NCBI RefSeq assembly: GCF_003334405.1
Contig: NZ_QOWM01000007.1
Origin: Escherichia coli
GTDB lineage: Bacteria; Pseudomonadota; Gammaproteobacteria; Enterobacterales; Enterobacteriaceae
DNA length: 64,000 nucleotides
Strand: one strand, 5' to 3'
In this document: one piece after another, positions 46,136-48,566 of the stretch
Numbering within the stretch: position 1 is the first letter of the stretch
How the letters are laid out: each line of letters begins with the position of its first letter
Made by a program: the position numbers and the translations under genes
Notes under the pieces: generated by a model
What the model was told of the DNA's origin: nothing
The model's input: the letters and a program-made list of their open reading frames with translations, nothing else
Database searches by the model: none

Positions 46136-47752
46136 ATGCTCAGTCAAATTCAACGCTTTGGCGGCGCGATGTTCACGCCAGTGCTGCTGTTTCCCTTCGC
46201 CGGGATTGTGGTGGGTCTTGCCATCTTGCTGCAAAACCCGATGTTTGTCGGGGAATCACTGACCGATCCGAACAGTTTATTCGCGCAAATCGTACACATT
46301 ATTGAAGAGGGCGGTTGGACGGTATTCCGTAATATGCCGCTGATTTTTGCTGTCGGTTTACCCATTGGCCTTGCTAAGCAAGCGCAGGGGCGTGCTTGTC
46401 TGGCGGTGATGGTGAGTTTCCTGACCTGGAACTATTTCATCAACGCGATGGGAATGACCTGGGGAAGCTACTTCGGCGTCGATTTCACTCAGGACGCGGT
46501 GGCAGGTAGCGGTCTGACAATGATGGCCGGGATTAAAACCCTCGATACCAGCATTATCGGCGCAATTATCATTTCCGGCATTGTGACGGCGCTGCATAAC
46601 CGTCTGTTCGATAAAAAACTGCCGGTTTTTCTCGGCATTTTCCAGGGGACGTCTTATGTGGTGATTATCGCCTTCCTGGTGATGATCCCCTGTGCCTGGC
46701 TGACGTTGCTCGGCTGGCCAAAAGTACAAATGGGGATTGAATCTCTGCAAGCGTTCCTGCGTTCGGCGGGTGCACTTGGGGTCTGGGTTTACACCTTCCT
46801 CGAACGTATTCTGATCCCAACCGGTTTACACCACTTCATCTACGGACAGTTTATCTTTGGTCCGGCAGCTGTTGAAGGCGGCATTCAGATGTACTGGGCG
46901 CAGCATCTGCAAGAGTTCAGTTTGAGCGCCGAGCCGCTGAAATCGTTGTTCCCGGAAGGCGGTTTTGCCCTGCACGGTAACTCAAAAATCTTTGGTGCCG
47001 TGGGCATTTCTTTAGCGATGTACTTCACTGCCGCACCGGAAAATCGGGTAAAAGTGGCGGGCTTGCTGATTCCCGCAACCTTAACCGCCATGCTGGTGGG
47101 AATTACCGAACCGCTGGAATTTACCTTCCTGTTCATTTCACCGTTGCTGTTTGCGGTACACGCCGTGCTGGCGGCCTCAATGTCGACCGTAATGTATCTC
47201 TTTGGTGTGGTGGGCAACATGGGCGGAGGTCTGATTGACCAGGTTTTACCGCAAAACTGGATCCCGATGTTCAGCAACCACGCGGATATGATGCTGACCC
47301 AAATCGCCATTGGGTTGTGCTTTACCCTGCTGTACTTCGTGGTTTTCCGCACACTGATTCTGCAGTTCAACATGTGCACGCCGGGACGTGAAGATGCGGA
47401 AGTGAAACTCTACTCAAAAGCCGAATACAAAGCCTCGCGAGGCCAAACCACCGCGGCAGAGCCAAAAAAAGAGCTGGATCAGGCTGCCGGTATCCTGCAA
47501 GCCCTGGGCGGGGTCGGCAATATCTCCAGCATTAACAATTGCGCGACGCGTTTACGTATTGCACTGCATGACATGTCACAAACGCTGGATGACGAAGTCT
47601 TTAAAAAGCTGGGAGCGCACGGCGTCTTCCGTAGTGGCGATGCCATTCAGGTGATCATTGGTCTGCATGTATCTCAGCTGCGTGAACAGCTCGATAGCTT
47701 AATTAATTCTCATCAATCAGCAGAAAATGTTGCCATTACGGAGGCAGTATAA
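46136..47752 (+). CDS. glvC: PTS glucose-family EIICB (GlvC with fused GlvB-like IIB domain)
   Basis: ATG at 46136 with aagagga 8 nt upstream; 538 aa continuous frame; C-terminal IIB motif NNCATRLR; track ORF from 45875 is a stop-free 5' extension. Confidence 0.8.
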
Positions 47753-48566
47753 TGACCAAATTCTCAGTGGTTGTCGCAGGCGGTGGAAGCACCTTTACGC
47801 CAGGCATCGTGTTGATGCTCCTGGCGAATCAGGACCGTTTCCCGCTTCGTGCACTGAAATTTTATGATAACGATGGTGCGCGGCAGGAAGTGATTGCCGA
47901 AGCCTGTAAAGTCATCCTTAAAGAAAAAGCGCCGGACATTGCGTTTAGTTACACCACCGATCCTGAAGTGGCATTCAGCGACGTTGATTTTGTCATGGCG
48001 CACATCCGCGTCGGCAAATACCCGATGCGCGAACTGGATGAAAAAATCCCGCTGCGCCACGGCGTTGTTGGTCAGGAAACTTGCGGACCCGGCGGAATAG
48101 CGTACGGCATGCGTTCCATTGGCGGCGTCCTGGAACTGGTGGATTATATGGAAAAATATTCACCAAATGCCTGGATGCTCAACTACTCCAACCCGGCAGC
48201 CATTGTCGCAGAAGCCACGCGTCGTCTGCGCCCGAATGCGAAAATCCTCAACATCTGTGACATGCCAATCGGTATTGAAAGCCGGATGGCGCAAATTGTT
48301 GGGCTGCAAGATCGCAAACAGATGCGCGTGCGCTACTACGGCCTGAACCACTGGTGGTCGGCGATATCCCGCAGTTTCAGAAAGGGTTAATGAGTCAGCA
48401 AGTGGCGGTGGAAAAACTGGTCGTGGACGCCTGGGAACAGCGTTCATATCAGCACCTGTGGCAGGCGATTACGTTGTCGAAAACGGTACCGAGCGCCTCG
48501 GTCGCCAAAGCTATTCTGGATGAGTTGCTGGAGGCCAACAAAGCGTACTGGCCAGAGTTACGTTAA
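47752..48566 (+). pseudogene. glvG: glvG remnant: 6-phospho-alpha-glucosidase (GH4) with internal deletion and frame break
   Basis: N-terminal 212-aa frame (47752..48390, Rossmann [12 protein letters not shown]) and C-terminal 70-aa frame (48354..48566) in different frames; about 815 bp total, far short of a typical GH4 gene (~440 aa as I recall). Confidence 0.8.

Follow-up and report, generated by a model that had tools for sequence, protein, structure and literature searches.

The window analysed here is a stretch of 64,000 nucleotides from Escherichia coli (contig NZ_QOWM01000007.1). It carries the glv region, in which glvBC, the gene of a PTS EIICB alpha-glucoside transporter, is followed by a remnant of glvG, with the regulator genes yidP and yidL on the two sides (Table 1). 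The stop codon of glvBC overlaps the start of glvG (TAATG). The annotated start of glvBC, the ATG at 46136, is conserved in all strains; the ORF finder carries the frame upstream to an ATG at 45875 (625 aa), over the divergent yidP-glvBC intergenic region (45875..46135), and this extension is most likely a mere stop-free open frame. Codon 369 of glvBC (47240..47242) is CAG in the window and TAG in MG1655, the only one of 15 aligned alleles to have the stop. Since the window has CAG and not TAG at this codon, it is not MG1655. Over 20 kb it is 100% identical to many wild phylogroup-A-like isolates, e.g., NCTC9041.

Table 1. Genes, reading frames and deletion junction of the glv region, in window coordinates.
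Feature	Position	Strand	Basis
yidP, GntR-family regulator gene, divergent from glvBC	45124..45840	-	annotation transferred from MG1655 locus L002, offset 43299
glvBC, PTS EIICB alpha-glucoside transporter gene, 538 aa	46136..47752	+	stop-free translation; Pfam PTS_EIIC and PTS_EIIB
glvG 5' segment, codons 1-200 (M1-H200)	47752..48351	+	ORF list; GH4 structure alignments
First ORF, 212 aa	47752..48390	+	ORF list
Deletion junction, sole surviving copy of the 8-bp direct repeat GAACCACT	48345..48352	+	comparison with intact allele L001
glvG 3' segment, native frame, E368-R440 and TAA	48345..48566	+	alignment to 6dux_A and O157:H7 allele
Out-of-frame tail of first ORF, 12 non-native codons and TAA stop	48352..48390	+	sequence read one base out of register past the junction
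Second ORF, 70 aa, GTG start, -1 frame, inside the glvG 3' segment	48354..48566	+	ORF list
yidL, AraC-type regulator gene, convergent with glvG, 4-bp overlap with its end	48563..49456	-	annotation of identical MG1655 DNA

The first-pass annotation had described glvG as a two-frame remnant consistent with an internal deletion, with a 212-aa, GH4-type, NAD-binding N-terminus in the first frame (47752..48390) and 70 aa in the second (48354..48566). Both frames are in the ORF list, and alignment to full-length GH4 proteins assigned them to the same enzyme with a large gap between. In a search of all solved structures, the 212-aa ORF matched residues 4-210 of the Klebsiella pneumoniae 6-phospho-alpha-glucosidase (6dux_A; E = 6e-128) and also Bacillus subtilis GlvA (1u8x), and the 70-aa ORF matched residues 375-442 of 6dux_A (E = 6e-35). 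About 165 residues of 6dux_A are absent between the two spans, and the matches are far above chance. Precomputed Pfam matches agree: PF02056 on a protein identical to the 212-aa ORF and PF11975 on the 3' segment. The 5' segment is the GH4 N-terminal NAD-binding domain and carries GGGS at residues 10-13, C169 and D170 within NICDMP, and H200 within YYGLNH. In the second frame, native sequence begins already at 48345 (E368), the GTG at 48354 being the ORF finder's start only, and its last 222 nt match those of the intact O157:H7 allele without a difference. The two ORFs share 37 nt (48354..48390). The 'WW' that follows ...GLNH in the first ORF mimics the native ...GLNHFGWW by coincidence, because CTGGTGG comes after the downstream repeat.

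Positions 47300..49000 of the window were searched against 5,426 complete E. coli genomes. Matches fell into three classes: contiguous matches of 1701 bp, MG1655 among them at 100% identity; two-piece matches spanning 2209 bp (508 bp longer), annotated '6-phospho-alpha-glucosidase'; and genomes that match from window 48596 on only (yidL), without glv genes. Intact glvG, for which the first-pass annotation had suggested looking in other E. coli, was thus found, e.g., in O157:H7 (locus L001), where a 1323-bp, 440-aa gene lies between the PTS EIICB gene and yidL, the same place as the glvG remnant. Residues 1-439 of the intact E. coli protein align with residues 4-442 of AglB (6dux_A) with no net indels (E = 6.6e-274), and B. 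subtilis GlvA aligns over residues 3-439, again with no net indels; Pfam places PF02056 at 6-184 and PF11975 at 195-415. Since the intact allele is colinear with AglB and GlvA from end to end, the long form is the ancestral one. The earlier estimates of a locus of about 815 bp, of about 440 aa for a full-length GH4 enzyme, and of roughly 500 bp missing from the middle are borne out by the 815 bp of the window, the 1323 bp and 440 aa of the intact allele, and an exact figure of 508 bp. When 508 bp were removed in silico from the intact allele of strain EM20-18-50 (L015), 1 of 815 bases differed from the window remnant. This allele is a near match to the window's own background and is still extant.

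Some strains that have kept glvG have lost most of its convergent neighbour. In HS-like strains (HS, EM20-18-50; L014:4272-6053, L015:3820-5593, corresponding to the DNA rightward of window 48566), glvG is intact, but of yidL only 75 bp at the 3' end are left; beyond this stub lie a degraded IS200/IS605 tnpA and a TnpB/InsQ gene. The next gene in HS is yidH, yidL-yidI being missing.

The breakpoint was located by comparison with the intact L001 allele, in which GAACCACT occurs twice, at gene positions 594-601 and 1102-1109, with a spacing of 508; the EM20-18-50 allele also has both copies. From the left, the window allele is in register with the intact allele through gene position 601, six SNPs aside, and the left and right matching stretches overlap by the 8 bases of GAACCACT. 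Removal of 508 bp at any of 9 offsets (593 to 601) regenerates the window allele, bar 6 SNPs elsewhere in the gene, and the crossover point is ambiguous within the 8 bases of 48345..48352. The junction keeps one copy of the repeat and has no filler bases. In the first-pass annotation the junction had been put near 48350..48360 and out of frame; the frame shift stands, and the coordinates are corrected to 48345..48352. Microhomology, which it had proposed to seek there, is present as the 8-bp repeat itself and extends to CC[T/A]GAACCACT, with 10 of 11 bases matching at the same spacing of 508. By our own calculation, the chance of at least 8 bp of junction identity with random endpoints is ~1e-4. 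The intact gene contains ~20 direct repeat pairs of at least 8 bp, the GAACCACT pair among them, and an inspection of the endpoints for palindromes or inverted repeats able to bring the direct repeats together gave nothing notable.

An 8-bp repeat at a junction free of filler is the usual mark of slipped mispairing or copy-choice at short direct repeats. The ancestral 1323-bp gene lost 508 bp by deletion from one direct copy of GAACCACT to the other, so that a single copy is left, probably through slipped-strand mispairing or copy-choice as the short repeat was replicated. Nothing in the evidence contradicted the deletion itself.

Of the 5426 complete E. coli genomes, 4277 have the 5' part of glvG and 1653 have the 508-bp middle; ~2,600 genomes carry glvG without the middle and ~1,150 have no glvG. 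Matches starting at window 48596, i.e., 30 bp past the glvG stop, were seen in ~1,150 genomes (~1,450 with partial cases), with a sharp left boundary and the glv region absent. In a table of genes that differ between strain groups (Touchon et al., 2009), glvC is included, which fits the strains without glvG. The three states of the locus (intact, deleted, and absent) make it a convenient natural marker. The 70-aa ORF, identical in sequence, has also been recorded in Shigella flexneri.

Further changes were seen at the locus in individual strains. In strain E148 (L006), a C>T change in the stranded 3' segment makes a TAG (window equivalent 48462). The 5' segment of one deleted allele contains an IS1 insertion (L022:663-1360), the deleted allele of one strain contains an insertion of the IS5-like ISKpn26, and in two loci (L016 and L019) shortened 5' ORFs of 169-198 aa occur together with a split yidL. 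Secondary lesions on the deleted allele are as expected for a pseudogene.

To relate the deletion to its surroundings, we aligned 8 deleted and 7 intact alleles, and the junction was identical in 8 of 8 deleted alleles. In this sample, which is small and pools phylogroups in a way that may shape the contrasts, mean pairwise differences in the right flank were 1.8 among deleted alleles vs. 17.1 among intact alleles over the 3' end of glvG and yidL, and 1.5 vs. 9.5 over the first 1 kb of the yidL-yidK intergenic region and yidK; in the left flank, covering the 3' end of glvBC and the 5' part of glvG, they were 11.6 vs. 11.4. On the right side, deleted and intact alleles show fixed differences at 3 sites in yidK and near-fixed ones at 2 sites in yidL, and yidL belongs to the haplotype block in linkage with the deletion. 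On the left side, at least 3 haplotypes were found within 330 bp of the junction, one of them matching the intact HS allele exactly. The linkage is one-sided (48345..50500 vs. 47199..48344): deleted alleles are near-invariant for at least 2.1 kb rightward (yidL, yidK), and leftward they are as diverse as intact ones up to ~140 bp from the junction. In strain 1919D62, yidL alone contains a converted patch.

The diversity of deleted alleles in the left flank therefore implies repeated recombination near the deletion, or else recurrent deletion. A single origin of the deletion combined with recombination appears to be the simplest reading of the flank pattern, with recurrence the weaker alternative. 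A deletion that occurred once would then have reached about half of the sequenced E. coli, by descent and by recombination, still linked to a single yidL-yidK haplotype, and recombination would have reshuffled its left side with the right haplotype retained. For the same 508-bp deletion to have arisen several times, with the GAACCACT pair acting as a slippage hot spot, is unlikely in our judgement. Such recurrence would accommodate the left-flank haplotypes, including the one shared with the intact HS allele, and a repeat-mediated deletion is reproducible in principle. However, all 8 deleted alleles lie on one right-flank haplotype over at least 2.1 kb, marked by the 3 fixed and 2 near-fixed differences, and the gene has ~20 other repeat pairs of at least 8 bp, yet no alternative deletion was present among the matches listed.

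A role for selection in the spread of the single deletion is conceivable, if improbable: the allele may have risen to about half of the complete E. coli genomes within a haplotype under selection that extends rightward over yidL and yidK, either because loss of the phospho-alpha-glucosidase was favoured in some gut niche or by hitch-hiking on a linked beneficial variant. If true, selection or hitch-hiking would explain the scant diversity for at least 2.1 kb rightward yet normal diversity just leftward. The lopsided linkage at the deletion could make a small case study of recombination around an indel.

Since 508 = 3x169+1, the deletion shifts the frame downstream. Codons 201-369, which make up most of the C-terminal domain, are lost. 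The frame opened by the glvG start now encodes 212 aa, made up of 200 native residues (M1-H200) and 12 nonsense residues, and the last 73 codons (E368-R440) are stranded in the other frame, untranslatable from the glvG start. C169, D170, H200, and Y263 of the E. coli protein line up with C171, D172, H202, and Y265 of GlvA. We take C169 and H200 to be the divalent-metal-binding Cys and His, D170 the adjacent Asp, and Y263 the equivalent of the catalytic Tyr (GlvA Tyr265); the roles of the matching residues are reportedly given in the GlvA structure paper of Rajan and colleagues from 2004. C169, D170, and H200 are kept in the window allele and Y263 is deleted.

Compared with what marks a GH4 enzyme, the 212-aa ORF retains the N-terminal Rossmann-type NAD-binding domain with its GxGS motif (GGGS 10-13) and the conserved metal-binding Cys and His with the adjacent Asp (C169, H200, D170). 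It has no complete C-terminal domain PF11975 with the catalytic Tyr, residues 201-369 including Y263 being gone, and in place of a single open frame of ~440 codons the locus has 815 bp in two frames. The glvG locus of the window is the remnant of a GH4 gene and, judged by its sequence, not a functional member of the family. It is a safe inference that the 212-aa product would be catalytically dead, since some three quarters of the C-terminal domain, with the counterpart of GlvA Tyr265, have been lost. With a live transporter beside a dead hydrolase, unhydrolysed phospho-alpha-glucosides could accumulate if the operon were ever induced.

An inactive fragment might still be kept for a function of its own, with the 212-aa Rossmann NAD-binding domain, e.g., binding NAD or a partner protein. 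The ORF is unbroken in the window and in many genomes, belongs to a cluster of 1367 members, and occurs as the exact 212-aa sequence on at least 1000 contigs; moreover, glvG is still positioned for translational coupling to intact glvBC. We nevertheless consider such retention very unlikely. In some genomes the remnant is damaged further, with IS1 and IS5 inserted or with ORFs cut to 169, 176, and 198 aa, and the stranded 3' segment is equally conserved, being identical in 6 of 8 deleted alleles. Since the untranslatable segment is conserved to the same degree, the conservation of the remnant reflects youth and not selection. The SNPs specific to deleted alleles, few in number and with codons read in the alignment, comprise 2 amino-acid-changing and 4 silent changes, a split that favours neither reading. 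A dN/dS test on the remnant was set aside because recombination has left nearly all left-flank SNPs common to deleted and intact alleles, with only ~6 confined to the deleted ones.

It is hardly credible that an active enzyme is assembled from the two frames, whether by programmed ribosomal frameshifting or from two separate subunits. The 37-nt ORF overlap (48354..48390) superficially resembles a frameshift site, but even a perfect frameshift would leave the product without residues 201-369, about three quarters of PF11975; the overlap is a by-product of a 3n+1 deletion, and intact alleles need no frameshift. Finally, a sequencing or assembly error as the source of the frame break can be dismissed, the same 815-bp structure being found, 98.9-100% identical, in complete genomes that many laboratories produced on many platforms and the 508-bp segment being missing from ~2,600 genomes.

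We return to glvG as a pseudogene formed by slippage-mediated loss of 508 bp at GAACCACT, with a dead product and a single origin followed by spread, an explanation to which, taken whole, we assign a probability of roughly 0.95. Both the earlier observation of two frames and its interpretation as a remnant left by an internal deletion hold.

The glvG deletion is an already known pseudogene of an ordinary kind and does not represent a new kind of feature. PGAP flags glvG as a 'frameshifted' pseudogene, and its product is named 'Putative inactive 6-phospho-alpha-glucosidase' in UniRef and 'inactive 6-phospho-alpha-glucosidase' at NCBI. An NCBIfam scan gave below-cutoff matches only, to alpha-galactosidase and AglA models, and likewise for the intact protein, so that it says nothing beyond 'GH4-like'. 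The K-12 homologues of aglA/aglB have been described as cryptic or truncated (PMC5309279), and the original descriptions (Reizer, 1994; Thompson, 1995, 1998, 2001) are cited here second-hand, as they appear in that paper. In the literature searched, in which 'glvG' mostly matches unrelated strings, we found no description of the 508-bp deletion, its exact breakpoint, or the repeat.

For annotation, the 212-aa and 70-aa ORFs are best entered as one pseudogene in place of two proteins. The deletion also supplies a base-by-base account of why the GlvBC/GlvG route to alpha-glucosides such as isomaltose is presumably closed to K-12-type E. coli. To repair the operon it would be enough to put back the 508-bp segment, and natural strains still carry it. 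Beyond good annotation the importance of the locus is slight, and the one-sided linkage is the sole mildly unusual result.

The nearest known system is glvG of E. coli K-12 itself (b3681), a pseudogene. Window 47300..49000 is 100% identical to MG1655 over 1701 bp, with the same junction, the same 212-aa product name, and the same PGAP flag, and there is no difference within glvG. The two differ in the preceding gene: glvBC has the TAG in MG1655 and is intact in the window, which comes from a different phylogroup-A-like strain.

The closest solved homologue is AglB of K. pneumoniae (PDB 6DUX/6DVV), whose PTS partner is AglA. The aglA/aglB gene order, EIICB transporter then hydrolase, is the same as that of glvBC/glvG; AglB is complete, whereas the window allele is without residues 201-369 and is frameshifted. 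AglB supports growth on isomaltose and also, as PMC5309279 cites from Pikis et al. (2006), on sucrose isomers. Judged by its sequence, the window glvG allele cannot be expected to support growth of this type. The GH4 reference enzyme, B. subtilis GlvA/MalA, a maltose-6'-phosphate glucosidase (PDB 1U8X), shares family and domain order with glvG, but the window allele has lost the equivalent of its Y265 (Y263) together with most of the C-terminal domain. The E. coli gene glvG is orthologous to aglB of Klebsiella and glvA of Bacillus, genes of an NAD+/Mn2+-dependent GH4 6-phospho-alpha-glucosidase, and intact GlvG would hydrolyse the phospho-alpha-glucosides imported by the adjacent PTS transporter GlvBC.

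For the deletion, the parallel is with the classic spontaneous deletions in lacI, which Farabaugh, Albertini and Miller reportedly found between short direct repeats. In lacI and glvG alike, there are two copies of the repeat in the parent and one at the junction, and the length of the deletion equals the spacing of the repeats. The lacI deletions are laboratory mutants, whereas the glvG deletion is a natural polymorphism carried by about half of the complete E. coli genomes searched.
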